64,000 bases of DNA from Enterovibrio gelatinilyticus (GTDB lineage: Bacteria > Pseudomonadota > Gammaproteobacteria > Enterobacterales > Vibrionaceae). Shown in pieces: positions 40,689 through 51,696 of this stretch. The position numbers and the translations under genes are program-made. The stretch spans positions 1 through 64,000 of the forward strand of contig NZ_JAJUBC010000028.1 of the NCBI RefSeq assembly GCF_028683095.1, read 5' to 3'. Each line of letters begins with the position of its first letter. Within the stretch, counting starts at the first letter, position 1. The notes under the pieces are model-generated. The model saw only the letters and a program-made list of their open reading frames with translations. It made no database searches and was not told where the DNA came from.

Positions 40689-41858
40689 CTAAAAATACCA
40701 ACTTACCTCCGCTTCGACAAAGTCATCACGTTTTAGGGAGTAAATTGGATCGGTGGCCTTGTCCGAGTCGAACATCCAACCTGTCACCGTCCAGCTCCAA
40801 TCATTCGAGAAACGACCGCTCGACTCTAAGCGCACTGTCATCGAATCTGTATCGTCTAAATCGACCGTACCCCCGACTAAGAACTCAGTGCCGTCGTGAT
40901 CATTCAGTACCCAGCGAAGTCCTGCAAACAGGTCATTTTGGCCAGCAACGGGGGCATCTTCATCGCGACTGTCGTAAAGATATTCCATCAGAAAACCCAG
41001 ATCGGTGATGCCTTCGTTCACACCTACATAGGTATATTCAAAACCTCCCGTAAACGCCGTATTTGATTCCAAGCTGTAACGACGAATGGCCTCAGCTTTC
41101 CAGAGCCAGTCACCGTAGATCGCTTGAACATCAAGGCCCACTTGCGTCATGAGCGCATAGTATGGCGATAAGGTGTTGAAGAAATATGGGTCTCGGTTAG
41201 TACCATGAAACACACTCAAACCTACGTCCCATTCATCAAACATGGTGCCATAACGCGCAGCAACATCAGGGTAAAACTCTTTATGACGAGATTCGTACTG
41301 TGCATCTGCATCGCCAGCACCAGGAACCGCTAAACGACCATCGTAACTTGCAAAGGTACGTTCGCGAAAATAGGGCAGCACGTATAAATCAAGCAAGCCA
41401 GATTCGAGTTCTAGCCCCAAGCTCATCATGGGTTGACCCAGTTTCACCTCGCCATCAATCGCTTCTACCGCATCAGTTTGATTGATCACATCAACAAGAT
41501 GTTGTGACTCTGTCACGCCCCAAAAGACGATACCGAAGCCAAAGCGCAGTTCGTAGTTATCTTCGTAGTGCATCAACAACGCTTCACGCACATCGCCATG
41601 CGTGCGCTCGTCATCCATTGAGTCCCAACGGAAGAACGGCGAAAAAGTAAAGCTCGTGTTCCCTTCGTCACTTTCCCAATAAAGCTCAGGTTCAATGGCG
41701 ATAGACGTTTGGCTTTTGTCCTGACCTTGAGCGCCAGCCTGTGAAAACTGACGCTGTTGAAAGGTCAGCTCACCTTCAAATTCAAATGCATAAGCGGGTG
41801 AGAGGAAAAGAGGCAGCGCTAACAGCGCCGCCAATGAAGTCCATGGTTTCATTCTCAC
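40689..41858 (-). CDS. Outer-membrane beta-barrel protein (DUF1302-like?), exporter-associated
   Basis: Signal peptide MRMKPWTSLAALLALPLFLSPAYA. Beta-strand periodicity rich in aromatic, Gly and Asp residues. The C-terminus …EVSWYF is an OMP signature. The start abuts the stop of the LolA-like gene. Confidence 0.6.
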   Translation of the reverse strand: MRMKPWTSLAALLALPLFLSPAYAFEFEGELTFQQRQFSQAGAQGQDKSQTSIAIEPELYWESDEGNTSFTFSPFFRWDSMDDERTHGDVREALLMHYEDNYELRFGFGIVFWGVTESQHLVDVINQTDAVEAIDGEVKLGQPMMSLGLELESGLLDLYVLPYFRERTFASYDGRLAVPGAGDADAQYESRHKEFYPDVAARYGTMFDEWDVGLSVFHGTNRDPYFFNTLSPYYALMTQVGLDVQAIYGDWLWKAEAIRRYSLESNTAFTGGFEYTYVGVNEGITDLGFLMEYLYDSRDEDAPVAGQNDLFAGLRWVLNDHDGTEFLVGGTVDLDDTDSMTVRLESSGRFSNDWSWTVTGWMFDSDKATDPIYSLKRDDFVEAEVSWYF

Positions 41859-41860
41859 TC

Positions 41861-42655
41861 CTAGCGCGCGCGCTTCAAGCTAGATTTAGAAAAGTCACCT
41901 TCATCCAAACCCGTGTTAAACGCTAGTTCTGTTGTGGTTAATTTGGTCGACTTACCCGTCTGGTGGTTCACCATCATCATCGTGTGCGCGCGCCAGTACT
42001 GATCCAGATACTGTTTGTAGTCACTGAACGTCAATGTTTTAAGCAAAGACTTACGGCGATCGTAGAACTCAGTTTTAAGCGGTCGGTAATGCTCTTGGTC
42101 AACCCACACTTTTTGGCTGGTATAACCTGAATACTTATCGGTTGGCGTTTGCACAATCACAAACGTATTTTGCCCATCAATTTCTTCTTCACCCACCAAG
42201 TCAAAGGTATATTTCTCGAGTTCAAACGAGCTCAAATCTTCGTACGCAAATTCGCTGCCCATGAATGGGCCTGACTTGTTGCGTGATGCAATACGTTTCA
42301 CGCGCTTTAGCGCAGGAAGGTAAAGCCACTGATCGTCAGCGCCAGTAATATGCGAGTAGTTAAGAAAGACGGTACCACGGACATCACGAGGTTCATCAAA
42401 GATGGTTAAGCCTTTATCGCCATCGCTTTCAACTTCAAGTGTTTTGATACGCAGTTTGCGATCACTGGTATCACCGTTCGCGTTTTCAAGCAGCATGGTC
42501 ATTTCAGCCACACTGTCACCCCAGCCTTGATCCCGCACTTTACGCTCTTTGGCGATTTCCAATCCCTTTACTTCATCGGCAACCACAGGCGCTGCTATCG
42601 CCATCATGCTAAACGCAATCACAACGGCTTTTGATAATGTTCTTATTGTTTTCAT
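41861..42655 (-). CDS. LolA-like outer-membrane lipoprotein-sorting family protein (DUF1329-like), exporter-associated
   Basis: Signal peptide MKTIRTLSKAVVIAFSMMAIAAPVVA with start ATG 42655. The ORF track reaches 42760, overlapping the MMPL gene. It is a ~260-aa periplasmic protein, and this family typically pairs with MMPL/RND exporters. Confidence 0.55.
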   Translation of the reverse strand: MKTIRTLSKAVVIAFSMMAIAAPVVADEVKGLEIAKERKVRDQGWGDSVAEMTMLLENANGDTSDRKLRIKTLEVESDGDKGLTIFDEPRDVRGTVFLNYSHITGADDQWLYLPALKRVKRIASRNKSGPFMGSEFAYEDLSSFELEKYTFDLVGEEEIDGQNTFVIVQTPTDKYSGYTSQKVWVDQEHYRPLKTEFYDRRKSLLKTLTFSDYKQYLDQYWRAHTMMMVNHQTGKSTKLTTTELAFNTGLDEGDFSKSSLKRAR

Positions 42656-42674
42656 TCTTCTCTCCTTGAATTCG

Positions 42675-45038
42675 TTACTGCGTTGCTTCTTTGCTAAACG
42701 ACTTAGATTTATCAGCCAAAGGCTCAGATTTACCGCCCAACGACTTGGATTCATTGGCATAGTTTTTCCTATCTGCTACTAGAAGCACGGCAGGTAGAAG
42801 AATAAAGTCCACGATGAGAGCAATGAATATAACGATGGCACTGAGCAGCCCCATGTCACTATTCAGACGGAAGCCGGATGTTGCTAACACGCTGAAACCA
42901 GCAACTAGCACCACGGTTGTAATCCATAGTGCGCGACCCACTGAATCAAACGCATAACGGATACCATCTTCAACATTGCGACCCTGCAAACGTGCATGGC
43001 GATATTTCGTCAGGAAATGCACCGTGTCATCCACCACCACACCCAAGGTCAAGGTGATAACAACTGAAAGCCCCAGGTTGATTTCACCTGACACAACAGC
43101 CCACAAACCAAAGCCCAAAATGGCTGGCACCAAATTTGGCACTAGACTAATCACACCAAGACGCCATGAACGTAATGCGAATACCAACAACCCAGAAATC
43201 AACACCAATGCAATCGGCAAGGTTTTCAACATACTGGCAATGTTGGTTTCACCAATGTGAGCGAACATCAGGTTCGGACCAGACGATGCCATCTCGTACT
43301 GAGGGGCATTAGCCTTAAACCATGTATCCATACGTTTTTCCAACGCAATCAAATCCACACTGCCTAGGTTGTCAGTGGTTAGTACTAATTTGACCGCAGA
43401 CTTATCAATGTTCACTTCGTTGTTTAGATCTAATCCGTACGGCAACGACATTTCGTACAACAGCAAATATTGCGCAGCAAGTTCAGGATCTTGAGGCAAG
43501 GCGTAGAATGATTCATCATCACCATGCATGTTCATGTTCAAACGTTTGAAAGTGTCGGAGATTGACGCGACATGGTCAGTCTCTGGTTGAGTTCTTAACC
43601 ACTCGGTGAAATCTTCGACTGCATTTAAAAACTCAGGATGCGTAATACCTTGTGGTTGACCCGATTTAATGGAAATACTGAGCGCGGTTGTCCCGCTAAC
43701 CGTTTCTTCCATATAATCAGCCGCTTGACGGAAAACATTGCCAGAATCGAAGTATTCAACGGCATTGTCATTGGCATGGTTTTGCATCAGCAACACCGCA
43801 CTCAATGCCACGACAATGACACTGACTGGCAGAATCTTCCTATGATTTGCAATCACGGTATCCGCTACCCATCCCATCGCTTTGTTACTGTTTTTCCGGG
43901 CAGGCTTCACCTTAAACGGCATCAATTGAAGCAATGCTGGTAATAGCGTGACAGACAAGACAAACGCGATCATCACGCCCAATGCAGCGAGATTCCCCAT
44001 GTCTCTCAATACCGGAGAGTCCGATGCATTCATCATTAAGAAGCCAATCGACGTTGTAACTGACGTGATCAATAGCGCGAGGAAATTAAGCTTAAGCGCA
44101 TAATTAATGGCCTCATTTTTGTCTTTGCCTTCACGAAGAGCATGCACATAGGACGTGATCAGGTGGACACAATCCGCCACGGCGAGAGTCATCACCAACG
44201 TCGGAACTGTCACTGTACCGTTATTCAGGTAGTGTCCTACCCAACCCAGCATCCCCATGGTGGCTGCAATGGTCAGCACAATCACGATCAGCGTCGCCAA
44301 GACAAACTTCCAAGATCGCAACATAATGCCGAGGAACACCAGTACAACAAGAAACATCATTGGTACCAGCGTTTGGCTGTCTGCTTGCGCAGCGTCAGCA
44401 AAAGCTTTATTCATGGCGATAATGCCCGCCAGATGGAAATCTACGTCAGGATAGGTTTCGTGCGCTTTAGCCAGAACATCTTTTGTAAAATTGACCACCT
44501 CCTGCACTTGCGCCGTTTGGTCACCATCCGGCAATTGAAAAGTGATATTCACAATGGCGGCTTGCGCGGTTTGACCGACGATAGCGTTAACTAAACGAGG
44601 TTCATTGAGGGCGACATCACGAATATAGTCGATTCGTGCATCGTCAAGTTCGTAATAATCTGGCGCGAGGTCTTCAACAAGCAAGTCATCCTCTTCCGCA
44701 GAGGTATGTTGATAATTCGTAATGGAGTCCACGCGACTCGCGTATGGTGTTAGCCAAGCTTCATCGGTGAGTTGTTGAATCAAGGAAAGGTTGTCTTTGG
44801 TAAACACGTCTTTGTTATGTGGCGCAACCACAATGGCAAGCGTGTCCGTTTTGTTAAATGTCGCTTCGAGTTCTTTGAACGATTGAAGCTGCGGGTTCCC
44901 TTTATCAAAGAAGATTTGGTAATCACCTCGAAAATACAAGTTTTGACTACCCATCGCCGCAACAACGGCAAACAAAACACTAAAGATCAAAAATAGCCAA
45001 GGACGTGCCGCAGGCATTCGATATAGTTCAGTTTTCAT
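42675..45038 (-). CDS. MMPL/RND-superfamily exporter (12-TM, two large periplasmic loops; HpnN-like)
   Basis: ~787 aa with duplicated 6-TM units and the MMPL architecture. Start ATG 45038 (MKTELYRMP…) with a GGAG SD. The ORF track reaches 45050. Confidence 0.75.
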   Translation of the reverse strand: MKTELYRMPAARPWLFLIFSVLFAVVAAMGSQNLYFRGDYQIFFDKGNPQLQSFKELEATFNKTDTLAIVVAPHNKDVFTKDNLSLIQQLTDEAWLTPYASRVDSITNYQHTSAEEDDLLVEDLAPDYYELDDARIDYIRDVALNEPRLVNAIVGQTAQAAIVNITFQLPDGDQTAQVQEVVNFTKDVLAKAHETYPDVDFHLAGIIAMNKAFADAAQADSQTLVPMMFLVVLVFLGIMLRSWKFVLATLIVIVLTIAATMGMLGWVGHYLNNGTVTVPTLVMTLAVADCVHLITSYVHALREGKDKNEAINYALKLNFLALLITSVTTSIGFLMMNASDSPVLRDMGNLAALGVMIAFVLSVTLLPALLQLMPFKVKPARKNSNKAMGWVADTVIANHRKILPVSVIVVALSAVLLMQNHANDNAVEYFDSGNVFRQAADYMEETVSGTTALSISIKSGQPQGITHPEFLNAVEDFTEWLRTQPETDHVASISDTFKRLNMNMHGDDESFYALPQDPELAAQYLLLYEMSLPYGLDLNNEVNIDKSAVKLVLTTDNLGSVDLIALEKRMDTWFKANAPQYEMASSGPNLMFAHIGETNIASMLKTLPIALVLISGLLVFALRSWRLGVISLVPNLVPAILGFGLWAVVSGEINLGLSVVITLTLGVVVDDTVHFLTKYRHARLQGRNVEDGIRYAFDSVGRALWITTVVLVAGFSVLATSGFRLNSDMGLLSAIVIFIALIVDFILLPAVLLVADRKNYANESKSLGGKSEPLADKSKSFSKEATQ

Positions 45039-45053
45039 CACACACTCCATTTG

Positions 45054-45281
45054 TGACGATTCGTCAAATTCTCTGCTTTAAAAAGCCAACTGATATGGCT
45101 TAGTACTTCCTAAACATAGGGTTATGTCACTCACCCTGTTCAAGCAAAACAAAATTACGCGTTCACATGGTTAGAAATTCAAATCATCGCCAGAAAAAAA
45201 CTGACGTTCCGTCAATTAATGACGAAACGTCAATGTAGTACAAAAAAGTAACAAATTAAAGCTTATTTTGACGAATCGTCA
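45054..45281. promoter_or_regulatory. Four 13-bp palindromes TGACG-N3-CGTCA (candidate TetR operators) between the TetR and MMPL genes
   Basis: The sites are tgacgattcgtca (45054-45066), tgacgttccgtca (45202-45214), tgacgaaacgtca (45220-45232) and tgacgaatcgtca (45269-45281). The first lies 16 bp upstream of the MMPL ATG, just upstream of its SD. Confidence 0.6.
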
Positions 45282-45302
45282 CAAATAAGTCAGTTGTCGC
45301 AA

Positions 45303-46076
45303 TTATGATTGATTTTCTAGAAGGGCAACTTCTTCGCCAAACAGGTCTTTTTCGGCTCGCTCCCATGTTTTTTGGTAGTCAAAATCACAAGACAAAGGCA
45401 TCCAGCGCATCCCATCAAGGAGGAAGTTGAGGTTCTGAAGCACGATATTGGTATCATGTTGACGAGATACACAGCTACTTTGCGTCGCATTATTTACCAA
45501 TGAACTGGTACCAAATGCCATCGCCCAATTTGCAAACACAATGCTATCGCTCGTGATGCCAGGTGCGAGGATGATATCTCCAGAACTCTGGCCAAGCTCG
45601 ATGAACTTATCACCAAATGACACCACAAGGTCTTCCAAAGTGTTCAGTTTTTCAAGGCGTTCAGGGGCGCTTTTTTCAGTGACCGCAGGCGTACGACTAA
45701 CCAATGCACACATCGCTAGGATGGGCGAGAGTTTCGAGAAAAGATGCATACCAGCATGCATGGCAATCAACTTTTCACGGCTTGAACCTTCAAAGTTGAG
45801 TGCGCTTGTGAATAGGGGAATTTTTTTACTCAGCGCTTGGATCGCAAGCGCAGCAAACAAATCTTCCTTGCTGTTGAAGTGATTGTAAATTGTACCTTTG
45901 GAATATGAGCTGGCTGCAGCAAGCTTATCCATATTGAGTTGTGCAAAACCTTCCCTTTCAACAATGCTACATGCTATTAGCAACAACTCATTCTCACGAT
46001 CTCGCATTGCCAATTGTTTGCGGCTCAACGTCGCGTCATCACTGATTAAATTTGATACTGCTTGCTCTAACATTGT
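45303..46076 (-). CDS. TetR/AcrR-family transcriptional regulator
   Basis: N-terminal HTH (…LIACSIVEREGFAQLNMDKLAAASSYSKGTIYNHFNSKEDLF…). Likely start ATG 46076 (MLEQAV…). The ORF track reaches 46142. Confidence 0.8.
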   Translation of the reverse strand, partial: TMLEQAVSNLISDDATLSRKQLAMRDRENELLLIACSIVEREGFAQLNMDKLAAASSYSKGTIYNHFNSKEDLFAALAIQALSKKIPLFTSALNFEGSSREKLIAMHAGMHLFSKLSPILAMCALVSRTPAVTEKSAPERLEKLNTLEDLVVSFGDKFIELGQSSGDIILAPGITSDSIVFANWAMAFGTSSLVNNATQSSCVSRQHDTNIVLQNLNFLLDGMRWMPLSCDFDYQKTWERAEKDLFGEEVALLENQS

Positions 46077-46398
46077 GAATATCCTTAGAAGATCCTTACT
46101 TTTATAGCACAAATAAGAAATAGATTGGCAGCTTGTCCTCACTTTTTGATGCGATCACATCTACCACTCTCGTACTCATTCCATTGAATATTCACGTAAA
46201 TTGAAGTCACTCGCCTAGCGTTGCTCCGCTAGACAACGCCTTTGATTCAGCCAAGAACTCATGACTCATTATGCTTTTTTGTCGAAAATCAGGAACCACA
46301 AAAGAATGTTCAACCGGATGACTCAGTAATGTCATCAAGCCATCTGCCGTACTTTTAACAGATGGACTTATTACAATCACTGAGTATATTTTGATAGG

Positions 46399-47337
46399 TT
46401 ATTGTGCTTTGGCCCAACGAACGATGTCATCTCGCGGCCAAATCATTAGATAGCTTTTAGGCGTGTACTTCCCTTCATCAAACAACCGTCGACGCTTTTT
46501 GTTCTGCAAAGCAACATGCCCTGCATCATCACATGATTCAAGCAGATAAAACGACGCGCCACCAGACTCTGGGAGCGTGCGTAAATAGGCCATTTTCGAT
46601 GATGCTTGTATTACCGAAGGGTCCCAGAACCAGCTTTGTGCAAATATGCCTGAAACGTGTGGTTCTGACTCAAGCCGTTGTGCGATCTCCAGATAAAACG
46701 CCCGCCAGCCCGGTTCAAGGAAGTCTGGATTAGTTCTTCGGTCTTCCATATGAAGTTCATACATGTTTTGTCTGTTGTTCAGCTTTCTCAGCAACATATC
46801 CGCAGCACTAACAAACTGTGCAATGCCATTCGCGGTAAGAAATCGACGCGGTAATGGTCTGGGTTCATAATGGCAAATTGAACGGCTTGGCCACATATTC
46901 AACGCGCTAATGGCTATGTCTTTTCTGAACAGATCGCTGTGAACATCAGGCTCATAGCTGCCCGTCGCAATGTCATCTGCCAAATACTCAAACCACTCTT
47001 TGATAGAGTCAATCACCATTGTCGGCATCGTCACATCATGACTAGCTAGGCCGGTCTGATCGCTTGAATCCAATGAGCGAAGACTCCGCTGCATTAAAGC
47101 CACCAGCGCGAGTTGATGAATATCTGCCTCTACGTCTTTGCTATGAGTGTTCGATAGCTGCTCAAGCCAACGATTCATCTCATCAGGGAAGTGTGAATAG
47201 GCGCGGCCGGGCATTTCATCTTGTACAAAAGACAGATATCGTTCGCGAACCGTTGATAGCGTATCGACTTGCTTATTGAGCCTGCTTTCAATCATCTCGT
47301 GTAGATCATTCAGCTTGGTTTGCAACGTCATACACAC
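46399..47337 (-). CDS. Hypothetical protein (312 aa), last gene of the FkbH/ACP operon
   Basis: No recognisable motif. The start is adjacent to or overlaps the SDR gene stop, and the gene is co-oriented with the upstream biosynthetic genes. Confidence 0.5.
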   Translation of the reverse strand: MCMTLQTKLNDLHEMIESRLNKQVDTLSTVRERYLSFVQDEMPGRAYSHFPDEMNRWLEQLSNTHSKDVEADIHQLALVALMQRSLRSLDSSDQTGLASHDVTMPTMVIDSIKEWFEYLADDIATGSYEPDVHSDLFRKDIAISALNMWPSRSICHYEPRPLPRRFLTANGIAQFVSAADMLLRKLNNRQNMYELHMEDRRTNPDFLEPGWRAFYLEIAQRLESEPHVSGIFAQSWFWDPSVIQASSKMAYLRTLPESGGASFYLLESCDDAGHVALQNKKRRRLFDEGKYTPKSYLMIWPRDDIVRWAKAQ

Positions 47338-48059
47338 TCTCCGCCAGTCACTGGTAGATTAACGCCATTGATGTATTCCGCCCCATCAGAAAGCAAAAAG
47401 ACCACAGATGATGCTACCTCCGTTGAGGTTGCATTGCGCTTCATCGGGTGAGATGCCGCGTTCTGAATCACCATATTGTCGGGAATATCCTGCAAGAATG
47501 GCGTGTCGACCATCGAGGGGGATACCGCATTCACACGAATACCTTTGCTACCAAATTCGGCCGCTAACGAACGCATCAAGCCCAATTGTGCGTATTTGGC
47601 AATGTTGTAGTCAGCCATTGCAGCAGGTGGCAGACCCAAAGTAACACTGCTCAATATGAAGACCACTCGCCCTGCCCCACGTTGCGCCATCGAGGGTAAG
47701 AAAGCTTTCGCAATCATCATACTGCTCATCATTTGCACTTCGAGCTGCTCCATGACTTGATGGCGCGATACTTTTTTAAACCGCGTCAATTTCAGTCTCG
47801 GAGCTTGCGCAAAAACAAGATGATCAGGTTTTGAACATAGTGCCATTGCGTTTGAAATAAATGCCTCGCAACTGTCAGGGTCACTTAAATCAGCGCCAAG
47901 TACATGAAGCTCGTTTTGCATGCTTGATTGCATACTTTCAAGCGCAGCAAGATTATTACACCCATGCGCGATAATACGATTGCCTTCGCTATCGAGCATC
48001 GACATGACCGCTTTGCCAATGTCCGAGCTCGCTCCCACGATTAAACTGGTTTTACTCAT
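47328..48059 (-). CDS. SDR-family oxidoreductase (3-oxoacyl-ACP reductase-like)
   Basis: Rossmann GASSDIGKA (TGxxxGxG-like), catalytic YxxxK region (…NIAKYAQ…) and the NGV…PG tail. Overlaps the dehydratase gene stop by 4 nt. Confidence 0.75.
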   Translation of the reverse strand: MSKTSLIVGASSDIGKAVMSMLDSEGNRIIAHGCNNLAALESMQSSMQNELHVLGADLSDPDSCEAFISNAMALCSKPDHLVFAQAPRLKLTRFKKVSRHQVMEQLEVQMMSSMMIAKAFLPSMAQRGAGRVVFILSSVTLGLPPAAMADYNIAKYAQLGLMRSLAAEFGSKGIRVNAVSPSMVDTPFLQDIPDNMVIQNAASHPMKRNATSTEVASSVVFLLSDGAEYINGVNLPVTGGECV

Positions 48060-48487
48060 GCCGATGACTCGCTTTCATCAATCCCTGAATGTATCCGCGC
48101 TTTCGATACCACTTGCCCGTGTTGATTTCGGATAACTGCTTTGATTTCGATACGTTTTAGAAGGGTGTGAACATCCACCACTTCTCCAACAACGGTGAGC
48201 ACATCACCCACAAAAACGGGGCGACTGAAACGCGTTTGAATATCCTGCAACAATGCATTTTCACCCGGTAAATACACACCGACCAATGTGGAATATAACG
48301 ATGCCGTCATCATGCCGTACACGACGACATCAGGATGCCCTCGCCGTTTTGCATGCTCCGCATTGGTATGAAGCGGGTTAATATCACCACTCACCAAAGT
48401 GAAAGCATTCAGCTTCTCCTCGGTAATATCAGTAGAGAATTGGTGTTTTAAGCCCACATCAATGTCATCAATACCGTATTGCTTCAT
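48056..48487 (-). CDS. MaoC-like (R)-specific enoyl-ACP/CoA hydratase/dehydratase (hotdog fold)
   Basis: …LVSGDINPLHTNAEHAKRRGHPDVVVYGMM… is the MaoC dehydratase signature. 143 aa. Confidence 0.7.
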   Translation of the reverse strand: MKQYGIDDIDVGLKHQFSTDITEEKLNAFTLVSGDINPLHTNAEHAKRRGHPDVVVYGMMTASLYSTLVGVYLPGENALLQDIQTRFSRPVFVGDVLTVVGEVVDVHTLLKRIEIKAVIRNQHGQVVSKARIHSGIDESESSA

Positions 48488-48501
48488 TCATCTGATCCCG
48501 A

Positions 48502-48750
48502 TCATGCTGCTTGAAGTTTTCGAGTGATTAAATCAACCGTATCGCCCACATTACCCGCCTGATTCAACTGTTCAATTTCCGACAAACTAAATTTAATCGC
48601 CAACTCTTTTTCAATAGCATCAATGATTTGTATCTGTGCCAGTGAATCCCAGTCTTCAGCATGGTCTGCCGTCGTATCTCGTGTCACCACTAAATCATCT
48701 TCATCCAGCACATCCGAAATGATCTCAGAAATCGCATTCAATATATCCAT
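48502..48750 (-). CDS. Acyl carrier protein (discrete, pathway-dedicated)
   Basis: 82 aa and acidic, with the phosphopantetheine-attachment context …EDWDSLAQIQII…. Confidence 0.75.
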   Translation of the reverse strand: MDILNAISEIISDVLDEDDLVVTRDTTADHAEDWDSLAQIQIIDAIEKELAIKFSLSEIEQLNQAGNVGDTVDLITRKLQAA

Positions 48751-48832
48751 ACAAGCTCCTTTATCGTGCCGCGTAATGAACCTATTTTGAGGTTGTGTAT
48801 TTGTTCTTTATTTAGCATTCGATCTGACAATT

Positions 48833-50644
48833 TCATTGGCGCATGATCATCAGCGGGAGGTCAGGTTCAGCGTGATGTTCGTCGATGACGTATTCCCACT
48901 GGCTGCTACCCTCTTCGTTCTCAGATAGACACTGAAAGCCAAGTGATGCGTAATGACCACTCACCAAACCGTTCTTCTTACTCGGCACATATTGACCAAC
49001 CAATTTACTGACATTCCGGGCTTTCGCATGGCGAACCAATTCTGAAAACATCGCCATTTCCATCTTTCTTTTGAACACTCGGCAGCTCATTAGCCATAGA
49101 TCAATCGTCAGAGTGTGTTCATGCTCGGTCCCGACAATCACGGACACAATACCATTGTCGCCAAACTTATCTTTCAATCGGCCATACAGCGAAAGGTGTT
49201 GCGGAGAGTGCATGAAAGACGAAATTTCCTGTGCACTATAGCGTTGAGTCGTGAGGTTAAATTGGTTGGTTTTATTGGTGAGCTGCGTAATGCGAGATAA
49301 CGATACATCGTCGAATGGCGCGATCATCGCCATCATGTCTAACGATTTTAGATAATCATCATAGTTTGCAAATTCACGCTGCAATTGCTGGCGTTCTTGA
49401 TTGTGCGCATACATGGCAGCTCGCGAAACATCTTCTGGATTGAGGGATACCAATTCAAATAAGCCCGCTTTGTCCAAAGCCGTGATGTATTGCGTGACAT
49501 CTTGCCCAATGTTGGGCACAGCAACCGATGAAAGATTACTCGCGACCAGCTCACGCTCACTGGCGTTATCATCAAGGAACACAAGGGAGTCGAGACCGAT
49601 ATTAAGTGACTCAGCAATCTGTTCAATATTTTGGTCTTTGTTTTCCCAATTAGCTTTGAATTCGCTGAAGTCAGAGAGCATGAGTATTGAATCAGGGTGC
49701 GAGAACCCTTGTTTCGCGTTCTCAATGTCATTTTTGCTGCAAACCGTTAAAAGTACACCGCGCTGATGAAGTGCCTTCAAGTATTGTTGCAATTCTGTGT
49801 AAGCTTCGGCCTCAGCGCTTTCATGCCCGATTTGGATGCCACTTAAGCCATCATCACCAATCACACCGCCCCACAGCGTATTATCTAAATCACAGACGAT
49901 GGCTTTCTTGCTCAACCCCAGCACTGCGAGAATTTGGTTAGCCACACTGTGCCCCAATTCAGGGAACGCATCGCTACTCATCGCATACTTGTAGGCATAC
50001 CACTGCGTTTTGTTGAACCAACGCTCTAACCCAAACCATGCAGACAAATAGTTAAGGTCATGCAAAATGAAATTTGCACGCTGTTCGGCGTATTCTGCAA
50101 ATTTGGTATTCAATGCATTGGTGAAACGTGTTTTCCCGGCGGTGGCAGACGCATCAATGTTCCCCATAGGACGGGAAAACGGCAGTTCAAAATTGTTCTG
50201 AATAATGGTGGCTTGATACTTACGGTGTAACGCCTGCCAAACGGTATGAAAGTAATCATAGGTATCCGCAACTTTATCACTAACGTCGACGTTATTATCT
50301 GTAGGCGCTGGCCATGTCGTTAGGTTCACACAGGTCGTGTGGAGATAAATAACCTGAGGGTCAAAAGCGTCGAGCGCATCATTGTCAAATACCGATTCTT
50401 GATAGAACTGGTTGTAGTCAGACTGATAGATTTCGACATTCACACCCATGTTCAGCAAAAAAAGTTCAATGTAATTGGCCACTTCACTGGTTGTGGAGCC
50501 GCCCAAGATCGCAACACGTAAAGGCGGCGCAGTCAGCGAGGCTTTCAGGGTTCGGCGCAGTTTCTTTTGACGACGCTGCAGCCACGCCACATCCAAAGGG
50601 TATGCGATCCTTACGTTCGTCGTTTCAGTCATGTTTTTCCTCAA
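48833..50644 (-). CDS. FkbH-like HAD-IIIC family phosphatase/acyl-ACP loader with C-terminal GNAT-like domain
   Basis: HAD motif I (VCDLDNTLWGGVIGDDG), motif II/III (…TVCSKN…, …VFLDDNASE…), and the …QFNLTTQRY… region typical of FkbH-like domains. 603 aa. Confidence 0.65.
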   Translation of the reverse strand: MRKNMTETTNVRIAYPLDVAWLQRRQKKLRRTLKASLTAPPLRVAILGGSTTSEVANYIELFLLNMGVNVEIYQSDYNQFYQESVFDNDALDAFDPQVIYLHTTCVNLTTWPAPTDNNVDVSDKVADTYDYFHTVWQALHRKYQATIIQNNFELPFSRPMGNIDASATAGKTRFTNALNTKFAEYAEQRANFILHDLNYLSAWFGLERWFNKTQWYAYKYAMSSDAFPELGHSVANQILAVLGLSKKAIVCDLDNTLWGGVIGDDGLSGIQIGHESAEAEAYTELQQYLKALHQRGVLLTVCSKNDIENAKQGFSHPDSILMLSDFSEFKANWENKDQNIEQIAESLNIGLDSLVFLDDNASERELVASNLSSVAVPNIGQDVTQYITALDKAGLFELVSLNPEDVSRAAMYAHNQERQQLQREFANYDDYLKSLDMMAMIAPFDDVSLSRITQLTNKTNQFNLTTQRYSAQEISSFMHSPQHLSLYGRLKDKFGDNGIVSVIVGTEHEHTLTIDLWLMSCRVFKRKMEMAMFSELVRHAKARNVSKLVGQYVPSKKNGLVSGHYASLGFQCLSENEEGSSQWEYVIDEHHAEPDLPLMIMRQ

Positions 50645-50664
50645 TCACGAATACTTACCCTCGC

Positions 50665-51696
50665 TTAAGAACGTGTTTTCCCCATTGCCCAACGTAGTGT
50701 GTCCACCACACCTGAAAGGGTGACGATAAACTGATTTAACGAGCGGCTATCCATCACTAAATTGCGCTTCAACTTCAACGGGTGTTCCGTTCTAGCATTC
50801 AACCCTTCATCCAACGTGGTCGCCGTTCTGATGCCAAGAGCGTTCAATTCTGGAAGATGTTCTGGTGACCAAATCCCACTCGGGTAGCAAAAATGCGTCA
50901 GCGCTTTTGGAGAGGCAATCTGCGCAGTTAAGACCTCTCGATTGGTTTCTATTTCGTGATGAATGGCATCGCTATCTGTCGGCAATTTGTGGGTATGTGT
51001 ATGCAGTTGAATGTTGGTCAATGGTGAAGCCATCGCTGTGTTTAACTCGTGATAATTGGCGTTATGAAAGCGCTTTGCTTGTATCGCATCATCGCCTACA
51101 CCTAACGCACTCGCTGTCGCCGACAAAAACGCCGTTTTTTGGTCGTCGTCAAAAGAGACCATTGCAGCTTCTACCAATTTTACTATGTCAGACACACTTC
51201 CTGTGAACCCATAGCGTTGACCTTGAAATTCAACATCAAACGCTTCTGTCGGTTTTTGCCACAACCAATATTGGATTAAGACATTAACTACCGGGATCTG
51301 ATGGTCACAGTAATAAGTCGTCACATATACCGTCGACGGAAACTGATACGCCTGAAAGGTGGGCAAAAGTTCAGTAATACTGGATCGCCAGCCATCATCT
51401 ACCGTGATAACAACGGGGTATTTGAAATGTGCCTCTCCGTTTAAATGGCGTTCCGCGTCATCGAGACTTATCACGTTAAAGTGCGAGCGTTCGAGATAAT
51501 CCAACAACTCATGGAGTTTCTCCTTTGAGATGAAAACACCCGGCCAGAATTGATGCTCATCTTTCAACGCCATCGAATGAAAGCAAAGGATGATTAATTT
51601 ATCTCGATGGAAATATGAAAGGGCTCTGGCAATACCTGTTCGAACAAAAAATGTATATACCGCCTCCCTCATCTTGCGCATTCCGTAGCTCTCCAA
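50665..51696 (-). CDS. Polysaccharide deacetylase (NodB homology domain, CE4) family protein
   Basis: NodB motif 1 VVITVDDGWRS and His motifs (…HTHTHK…). 343 aa. Confidence 0.7.
   Translation of the reverse strand: MESYGMRKMREAVYTFFVRTGIARALSYFHRDKLIILCFHSMALKDEHQFWPGVFISKEKLHELLDYLERSHFNVISLDDAERHLNGEAHFKYPVVITVDDGWRSSITELLPTFQAYQFPSTVYVTTYYCDHQIPVVNVLIQYWLWQKPTEAFDVEFQGQRYGFTGSVSDIVKLVEAAMVSFDDDQKTAFLSATASALGVGDDAIQAKRFHNANYHELNTAMASPLTNIQLHTHTHKLPTDSDAIHHEIETNREVLTAQIASPKALTHFCYPSGIWSPEHLPELNALGIRTATTLDEGLNARTEHPLKLKRNLVMDSRSLNQFIVTLSGVVDTLRWAMGKTRS

Follow-up and report, generated by a model that had tools for sequence, protein, structure and literature searches.

Why should the short region between a repressor gene and the exporter gene that follows it carry four copies of one operator-like palindrome, the last of them just in front of a start codon? 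The region in question lies in a 64,000-nt stretch of the Enterovibrio gelatinilyticus genome (contig NZ_JAJUBC010000028.1, positions 1 to 64,000; hereafter the window), where a gene for a TetR-family regulator (tetR) is followed on the minus strand by a gene for a transporter of the MMPL family. In the reading that we favour, and to which we give a probability of nearly four in five, the four palindromes are putative operators of the adjacent TetR that fall into three classes and would together control an operon encoding the MMPL transporter, a LolA-like carrier and a porin-like protein, with the start-proximal site acting on the elongation of transcription.

The palindrome, TGACGNNNCGTCA, occurs in the window in exactly four copies, starting at positions 45054, 45202, 45220 and 45269, and nowhere else. 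Dinucleotide-preserving shuffles of the window contain on average 0.14 copies of TGACG-N3-CGTCA, and none of 100 shuffles reached four. Imperfect copies show no excess, with 30 sites at one or two mismatches elsewhere in the window against 28.2 expected, and the only match at up to two mismatches near the 5' side of tetR (46026-46038) lies within the tetR coding region and not upstream of it. A preliminary description of this DNA had reported four perfect 5+5 inverted repeats, one of them 16 bp before the ATG of the MMPL gene; the same coordinates and distances were recovered, the site at 45054-45066 ending exactly 16 bp from the ATG at 45038. It had also let three sites fill a 265-bp intergenic region. 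Their location stands, while the region between these two minus-strand genes is 264 bp long and contains all four sites. In the direction of transcription we call them A, B, C and D (Table 1).

To place these sites in a wider context, the locus was compared with 80 genomic loci carrying TetR relatives of 98% down to 43% identity, making 81 loci with our own. The peptide KGT[IV]YNHF, the recognition helix of TetR, served to retrieve these loci, which represent Enterovibrio, Grimontia, Photobacterium, Vibrio, Aliivibrio, Veronia, Pseudoalteromonas and one Oleispira metagenome-assembled genome (MAG; L080). The MMPL gene is next after tetR in 79 of the 80, and the complete module of tetR, MMPL, LolA-like and porin-like genes is found in 77. 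The 980,307 bases of the 80 loci and the window hold 228 exact palindromes, 171 between tetR and MMPL and 57 upstream of tetR, and not one in the 918 kb outside the tetR-flanking regions. In 76 of the 80 orthologous loci the invariant motif is present, solely beside tetR. Sites with one mismatch are concentrated there as well, at 2.4 and 0.64 per kb beside tetR against 0.019 per kb elsewhere (an enrichment of about 100-fold), and sites with two mismatches stay at background level in the tetR-flanking regions.

The linkage also appears when the search starts from the motif. When metagenome contigs were scanned with the tandem motif as the sole query, at least 120 stretches matched; among the matches listed, 62 of 120 lie no more than about 300 bp from a gene for a TetR of this subfamily (22-52% identity), and in 60 of these 62 listed matches the motif lies 5' of tetR, as judged by profile search. 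The whole promoter-operator module recurs among the tandem-motif matches listed, in contigs of 37-72% GC. The motif as a conserved cis-element tied to this TetR subfamily is thus strongly supported by the comparison. The preliminary description had proposed TetR operators at the start of the MMPL operon, and a motif that is confined to the flanks of tetR, and that leads back to the same subfamily when searched for first, bears this out: the four palindromes are almost certainly operators of the adjacent TetR, though we retain the word putative. Our literature searches returned no report of the TGACG-N3-CGTCA string, nor of a system of TetR and an HAE3-type transporter in Vibrio.

The four sites are not equivalent. 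Compared across loci, they belong to three positional classes, which we term tandem (B and C), auxiliary (A) and terminator-coupled (D).

The tandem pair appears to mark a regulated promoter. It is present in 77 of the 81 loci, spaced by 17 or 18 bp in every one of them, and a logo of the 50 nt upstream of it (77 distinct sequences) gives a -35 element TTGAta (T 100%, T 87%, G 74%, A 83%), a 16-nt spacer and a -10 element TATTAT (T 97%, A 100%, T 88%, T 75%, A 82%, T 100%). The -10 always abuts the first tandem site, and in the 77 loci its last T doubles as the first base of that site. Hexamers 16-18 nt apart, with an operator overlapping the -10 or the start, are what a repressible sigma-70 promoter should display, and the 77-sequence logo displays both. 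The dimer-of-dimers layout that the preliminary description had assumed for the array suits this central pair, with its 18-bp spacing, while A and D do not fit it.

The position of the module relative to tetR differs between lineages. In 63 loci (most Vibrio, Pseudoalteromonas and Oleispira; the Vibrio-type layout) it stands upstream of tetR, which is a classic signature of autoregulation, and in 14 loci (Enterovibrio, Grimontia and two Photobacterium species; the Enterovibrio-type layout) it stands between tetR and MMPL. A conserved extended -10, TGnTATAA, is found upstream of tetR in every locus without a tandem promoter there (L001-L014, L044 and L055); in the Enterovibrio-type layout it reads TGcTATAA and has no operator beside it. 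This suggests two alternative wirings made from the same parts, one in which tetR is constitutive and one in which it is autoregulated.

Site A has a narrower distribution. Only Enterovibrio and Grimontia have it, and in 12 of 12 loci it precedes the first tandem site by exactly 49 bp. In the window, a perfect 20-nt inverted repeat, ATTTGTGACGATTCGTCAAA, at 45049-45068 and 45267-45286, takes in the two outer sites. A and D are thereby exact reverse complements across 20 nt, including the flanks CAAAT and ATTTG, and their centres are 215 bp apart. Such identity may point to a longer, asymmetric recognition sequence or to a loop that joins A and D. Upstream of tetR, Pseudoalteromonas xiamenensis (L053) has a third site with one mismatch (TGACTATTCGTCA), which lies over the -35 and precedes the first tandem site by 27 bp, so that lineages differ in how many operators the promoter has.

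Site D, about 165 bp downstream of the start predicted from the sequence, is the most position-constrained of the four. In 74 of 77 loci its centre stands 20-22 bp from the MMPL ATG, in a block TGACGAAACGTCA-CAAAyGGAG-N6-ATG. In the window it is preceded by a leader hairpin with a T-run, the second such structure in the intergenic region, and an equivalent hairpin with a T-run is found in about 72 of the 77 loci, compared with 4% of random 55-mers. The stems are of more than 30 kinds, for example CCAGC/GCTGG, GCCA/TGGC, CCGGC/GCCGG, CCCAT/ATGGG and GTCAAC/GTTGAC, so it is the structure and not the sequence that is conserved.

The distance between hairpin and operator is what separates the classes of site. 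Hairpins were counted with an explicit stem finder, which replaced a statistic based on minimum free energy that was confounded by pairing between A-tracts and T-tracts. A G:C-closed hairpin with a T-run ends 17-19 nt before the start-proximal (last) site in 67 of 77 loci, in 43 of them at exactly 18 nt, and before 60 of the 68 other post-tetR sites outside the promoter, in 50 cases at exactly 18 nt. The hairpin-operator unit thus accompanies 127 of 145 non-promoter sites; it accompanies none of 150 promoter tandem sites and none of 12 A-type sites, and random positions have it in 16 of 3000 cases (0.5%). In the Vibrio-type layout the first post-tetR site keeps the spacing, and the hairpin there is the tetR terminator. 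Around the units there is free variation, with intergenic lengths of 211-508 bp and site-to-site distances of 79-171 bp. A constant 18 nt amid such variable lengths argues that the spacing is kept by selection and is not merely inherited.

The hairpin of our own locus has a GCCA/TGGC core extended by two A-T pairs and followed by T5, which is the make-up of an intrinsic terminator. The median folding energy of the 38-nt segment is -9.1 kcal/mol at last sites and -12.4 kcal/mol at earlier sites, and the value at our own locus is -7.3 kcal/mol. Given the short stems and the median of -9.1 kcal/mol, these hairpins would be weak terminators, if they are terminators. No Rfam family matched positions 44900-46500 at E <= 1. 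The recurrence of this fixed 18-nt pairing, about 127 times across genera and with drifting sequence around it, suggests that an intrinsic terminator can be wired to a repressor bound to DNA so as to give a conditional stop.

The start region of the MMPL gene has a further peculiarity. On the minus strand, positions 45038-45058 hold an inverted repeat, TCACA-(AAUGGAGnG)-UGUGA, which encloses the Shine-Dalgarno sequence in its loop, has the A of the ATG as part of its stem and overlaps the 3' arm of D by three bases. Vibrionaceae have this repeat unchanged, without covariation, and Pseudoalteromonas lacks it. Directly in front of the MMPL ATG stands a conserved GTG, which is unusual.

Table 1. 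Features of the tetR-MMPL locus, in the direction of transcription
Feature	Position	Strand	Remarks
Putative operator-free tetR promoter, extended -10 TGcTATAAA	46101..46109	-	Consensus match only
tetR	45303..46073	-	256-aa TetR-family regulator, narrow subfamily; Pfam TetR_N
Site A, auxiliary putative operator	45269..45281	-	Exact palindrome; 22 nt after tetR stop; centre ~50 bp upstream of predicted start
-35 position, TTAATT (weak)	45254..45259	-	Homologous to conserved TTGAta
-10 box TACATT	45232..45237	-	Last T is first base of B; -10 logo TATTAT
Site B, first tandem operator (putative)	45220..45232	-	Exact palindrome; covers predicted start ~45225
Site C, second tandem operator (putative)	45202..45214	-	Exact palindrome; 18 bp from B; centre ~+19
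T7 run after B+C hairpin	45194..45200	-	Terminator-like call
Leader hairpin AAGCCA-tatcagt-TGGCTT + T5 (45084-45080)	45080..45101	-	From folding; weak intrinsic terminator-like
Site D, terminator-coupled putative operator	45054..45066	-	Exact palindrome; 18 nt past hairpin stem; centre 22 bp before MMPL ATG
Shine-Dalgarno GGAG of MMPL gene	45045..45048	-	From sequence and block logo, within conserved CAAAyGGAG-N6-ATG
MMPL / HAE3-type RND transporter, first regulated gene (predicted)	42675..45038	-	787 aa; Pfam MMPL 1.8e-38; TIGR00921 HAE3 2.1e-56
LolA-like periplasmic carrier, longest open reading frame	41861..42760	-	Pfam LolA_like 2e-67; kept in 77/80 loci
389-aa protein, no Pfam domain	40689..41858	-	Kept in 79/80 loci

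With this in mind, one may propose how the three classes of operator would work together. Two TetR dimers on B and C would cover about -1 to +31, occlude the -10 and the start, and so block initiation. Site A, over -43 to -56, may help repression in the upstream-element region or may stop read-through from tetR. TetR bound to D would stall RNA polymerase in or next to the U-tract, where either the weak terminator would turn efficient or the roadblocked polymerase would be quickly released. A lipid-like ligand would free TetR, and polymerase would then read through into the pump genes. In the Enterovibrio-type lineage, tetR would be transcribed from its own operator-free extended -10 promoter. 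According to this model, the units would be ligand-dependent stops between the regulated promoter and the pump, and in the Vibrio-type layout also between tetR and the pump.

Work on LacI roadblocks gives this arrangement a possible rationale. The efficiency of such a roadblock depends on the termination rate of the stalled polymerase relative to the help that it receives from trailing polymerases (Hao et al., PMC4132739), and in the model of these authors Mfd removes a stalled polymerase with a half-life of about 11 s (PMC4132739). The same work showed that the block holds only when termination of the stalled polymerase comes sooner than its rescue by the trailing ones; a hairpin and U-tract at the stall site could act as an intrinsic means of release. 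That hairpin, T-run, 18-nt gap and operator form a new device, in which the efficiency of a terminator is set by a DNA-bound, ligand-responsive repressor downstream of it, is a tentative proposal that we consider rather more prone to fail than to hold.

Several points weigh against the overall reading. Its support is comparative sequence analysis throughout. The promoter of the window is a weak match to consensus (TTAATT, 16 nt, TACATT), and a generic promoter scan made no call there. The stall geometry assumes that RNA polymerase of Escherichia coli halts about 14 bp before a protein roadblock; such a halt would place the RNA 3' end inside the T-run. Among more distant tetR loci from metagenomes, 47 of 51 have no post-tetR site at all, which makes the unit a clade-specific elaboration (Vibrionaceae, Pseudoalteromonas and their relatives) and not intrinsic to the family; one distant locus (L114) carries a single hairpin-operator unit, again at 18 nt. 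Since the 80 loci were retrieved by the recognition-helix peptide, they cannot reveal covariation of helix and operator. In the motif-first search, 58 of the 120 matches listed have no TetR nearby; the majority are ACGT-core repeats or arrays of direct repeats without relation to the module, and in a few the module itself is truncated by the end of the contig, its promoter facing outward. Finally, two Veronia loci (L044, V. nyctiphanis; L055, V. pacifica) have tetR, MMPL and the same helix, and no site.

Two of these points come with observations of their own. In metagenome contigs L108, L175, L089, L162 and others, unrelated tandem-repeat arrays of 17-18 bp, and likewise ACGT-core repeats (TGACGTCACGTCA), match the tandem pattern. 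Owing to such satellite repeats, a genome scan for the motif alone will yield false positives unless the promoter context is required. The two Veronia loci have the porin-like gene and lack the LolA-like gene, and each has one CTGGT-N3-ACCAG palindrome in a long intergenic region. We considered this palindrome as an alternative Veronia operator, and a single copy per locus is too little to call. Nor are the Veronia exceptions informative on covariation between helix and operator, as the loci were chosen by that helix and the Veronia helix is unchanged.

Of the other explanations for the four palindromes, the one that fares best, unlikely as it is in our view, concerns D. It takes D for an ordinary operator at an unrecognised second promoter between the leader hairpin and the Shine-Dalgarno sequence, and the hairpin for an insulating terminator, so that the fixed spacings would reflect promoter geometry and not the coupling of a roadblock to a terminator. 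The Vibrio-type layout lends this some weight, since it has a clear terminator after tetR and no recognisable MMPL promoter before the leader hairpin, and therefore needs either a promoter elsewhere or read-through; the fixed distances to the ATG are, moreover, typical of short-leader promoters. However, the 18 nt from stem to site and the site itself contain no conserved -35/-10 pair, only the T-run being conserved, and across the compared loci no conserved hexamers were found near the first post-tetR site or near D. The spacings of sigma-54 (GG-N10-GC) and sigma-E promoters, checked by eye, do not fit either. The first post-tetR site, which is separated from any start codon by 80-170 bp, shows the 18-nt geometry as well, and the Enterovibrio-type layout already has a good, conserved promoter upstream.

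A second explanation, which we regard as improbable, starts from the tandem pair. On the coding strand B and C (45232-45202) form a 15-bp hairpin followed by T7, with a folding energy of -21.7 kcal/mol (z -5.7), which was called by a terminator scan; the pair lies 70 nt after the stop of tetR, which has no other terminator here. The pair might thus be mainly the intrinsic terminator of tetR, with the palindromes as a by-product. Yet the T-run after the hairpin is present only in the window and in L001 and L002, and in the 63 loci of the Vibrio-type layout the pair lies upstream of tetR and is unable to terminate it. The half-sites are invariant and do not covary, and a conserved promoter abuts the pair. 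We therefore reject B and C as primarily a tetR terminator, on the grounds that the T-run is not conserved and that in most genera the pair is upstream of the gene. In this strain the operator pair may have a second role in terminating transcripts that read through from tetR.

It is still less probable that the motif is bound by another transcription factor, a global one or one encoded elsewhere, and that the adjacent TetR is a coincidence. The two Veronia loci, which keep the recognition helix and have no sites, could be explained in this way, but the 918 kb beyond the tetR flanks contain no site at all. In most genera, moreover, it is the promoter of tetR that carries the motif, as expected for autoregulation, and a search that starts from the motif returns this very TetR subfamily.

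We give slightly less credence again to the idea that the palindromes are hairpins of the RNA leader, governing access to the Shine-Dalgarno sequence or mRNA stability, and are not protein-binding DNA at all. The constant distance of D from the ATG, about 22 nt, would suit such a role, and since the 3' arm of D overlaps TCACA..(Shine-Dalgarno)..TGTGA, alternative hairpins are conceivable. Against this, all 228 sites retain exact TGACG and CGTCA with no compensatory variant, a signature of base-specific recognition by a protein. Site B spans the -10 and the predicted start, so that transcripts from this promoter cannot carry it as a full hairpin; a stem of 5 bp around a loop of 3 nt is weak; the region matches no Rfam family; and the TCACA/TGTGA pair is neither covarying nor present in Pseudoalteromonas. 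That the outer 20-nt repeat, with its perfect arms 198 nt apart, is a miniature inverted-repeat transposable element, or the whole pattern chance, is excluded for practical purposes by there being only two copies in the window (0.01 expected), by the lack of a plasmid match and by the orthologous, fixed positions of the sites across genera.

We thus return to TetR as the predicted binder of all four sites, and to the protein itself. It matches Pfam TetR_N (PF00440) with an E-value of 3.5e-11 (43.1 bits, cut-off 24), is 100% identical to a TetR/AcrR protein of Enterovibrio makurazakiensis and has about 87 clusters of homologues. An AlphaFold2 model (pLDDT 90.3, pTM 0.86; the confidence measures for local and global structure) has 13 helices and no strands, and in a Foldseek search the top matches listed are almost all structures of the TetR family, with a probability of 1.00. 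A TetR fold, an N-terminal helix-turn-helix (HTH) followed by a helical domain, is assigned on the basis of this model. Its nearest folds are enriched for sensors of long-chain acyl-CoA, namely FadR of Bacillus and Thermus, PvrA of Pseudomonas aeruginosa and FasR of Mycobacterium tuberculosis; PDB code 7w2o among the Foldseek matches is PvrA, and a literature search for that code returned no paper. In sequence, the similarity to solved structures is mainly limited to the HTH region.

The genes predicted to be under TetR control are those of a transport system. Starting the MMPL gene at the ATG at 45038 gives a product identical to a protein annotated by NCBI. The longest open reading frame of the LolA-like gene overlaps the 3' end of MMPL by 86 nt (42675-42760), and its Pfam domain begins at residue 115; for both reasons the true start is probably further downstream. 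The 389-aa protein has no match in Pfam and no sequence match in the PDB. Among the UniRef names given to its large family are 'Porin' and 'Alginate export domain', and it is probably an outer-membrane barrel. The likely regulon would accordingly comprise an inner-membrane RND pump, a periplasmic LolA-like carrier and an outer-membrane barrel, which probably move a hydrophobic compound.

Directly upstream of tetR, on the same strand, positions 46399-51696 hold genes for a polysaccharide deacetylase, an FkbH-like protein, an acyl carrier protein, a MaoC dehydratase, a FabG-type reductase and a 312-aa protein without a recognised domain. Of the loci compared, those of the three closest Enterovibrio strains (L001-L003) share this cluster, and it is missing from all others, including that of E. 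norvegicus DSM 15893 (L004). It looks like a strain-variable insertion for biosynthesis of a lipid or polyketide type beside the exporter module.

As an operator prediction, the present result is an ordinary new member of a very well-known kind. It does define, for a TetR subfamily of many marine Vibrionaceae, including relatives of V. parahaemolyticus, V. vulnificus and V. harveyi, a predicted operator, a regulated promoter and a likely regulon. The terminator-operator unit, on the other hand, is undescribed as far as our literature searches show, in which no operator at a fixed distance behind a terminator was found. If the proposed mechanism is true, one or two such units between the regulated promoter and the pump genes would allow an operon that begins with its repressor gene to make the repressor while the pump stays tightly off, with a second checkpoint after initiation, and the unit would be a new mode among the few bacterial controls that act at the level of elongation. 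Synthetic biology would gain a compact part as well, since a roadblock by itself leaks when trailing polymerases push through.

Among characterised systems, the closest likeness of the promoter is to Tn10 TetR (tetO1/tetO2) and QacR (IR1). These share with the present system an N-terminal HTH in a TetR fold, short palindromic operators, adjacent paired sites over the -10 and the start, a neighbouring membrane exporter and, as expected here, release by a ligand. The present system differs in its half-site, TGACG-N3-CGTCA, in a regulator that is co-oriented with its target and not divergent from it, and in having extra operators beyond the promoter; its TetR resembles the solved TetR proteins in sequence only at the level of the HTH.

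Operators within a transcribed region, as D is predicted to be, are known from LacI, whose O3 truncates lacI transcripts and whose O2 lies in lacZ, and from CodY and CcpA of B. subtilis, PurR at purB of E. coli and C.Kpn2I. In the Vibrio-type layout, as with lacI and O3, the operator separates the repressor gene from the structural genes. An effective roadblock requires removal of the stalled polymerase (PMC4132739, PMC3711431, PMC6237814). In the known roadblocks it is Mfd or Rho that removes the polymerase, and no terminator stands at a fixed distance, whereas here a hairpin with a T-run lies 18 +/- 1 nt before the operator at 127 of 145 non-promoter sites. A weak leader terminator governed by a protein that responds to a small molecule, as we propose, has its precedent in TRAP at the trp leader of Bacillus subtilis (PMC3064811). 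TRAP binds the nascent RNA, whereas the proposed effector here would be a TetR dimer bound to the DNA downstream of the terminator.

Of regulators with a solved structure, FadR of Bacillus and Thermus, PvrA and FasR are the nearest neighbours of our model, with TM-scores of about 0.55-0.6, and are also the best profile matches in the PDB; identity to them is only 16-22%, and the present TetR is about 50 residues longer. To our knowledge, their operator sequences differ from TGACG-N3-CGTCA. They are acyl-CoA sensors, and the genes predicted to be regulated here likewise look suited to handling lipids or other hydrophobic compounds. In Thalassolituus oleivorans, TOL_3187 (MMPL plus LolA-like) and TOL_3188 (porin-like, without a recognised domain) are strongly induced during growth on the n-C28 alkane; the paper describes no regulator or operator for them (PMC6304351). 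The two genes have the same architecture of MMPL, LolA-like and domain-less porin-like parts as our operon, a likeness by gene architecture alone, and in the Oleispira MAG the tetR module comes with the tandem operator. Because the nearest folds of the regulator are acyl-CoA sensors and this gene architecture is alkane-induced in T. oleivorans, it is a reasonable guess, and no more than a guess, that both the ligand of TetR and the cargo of the pump are hydrophobic, lipid-like molecules.

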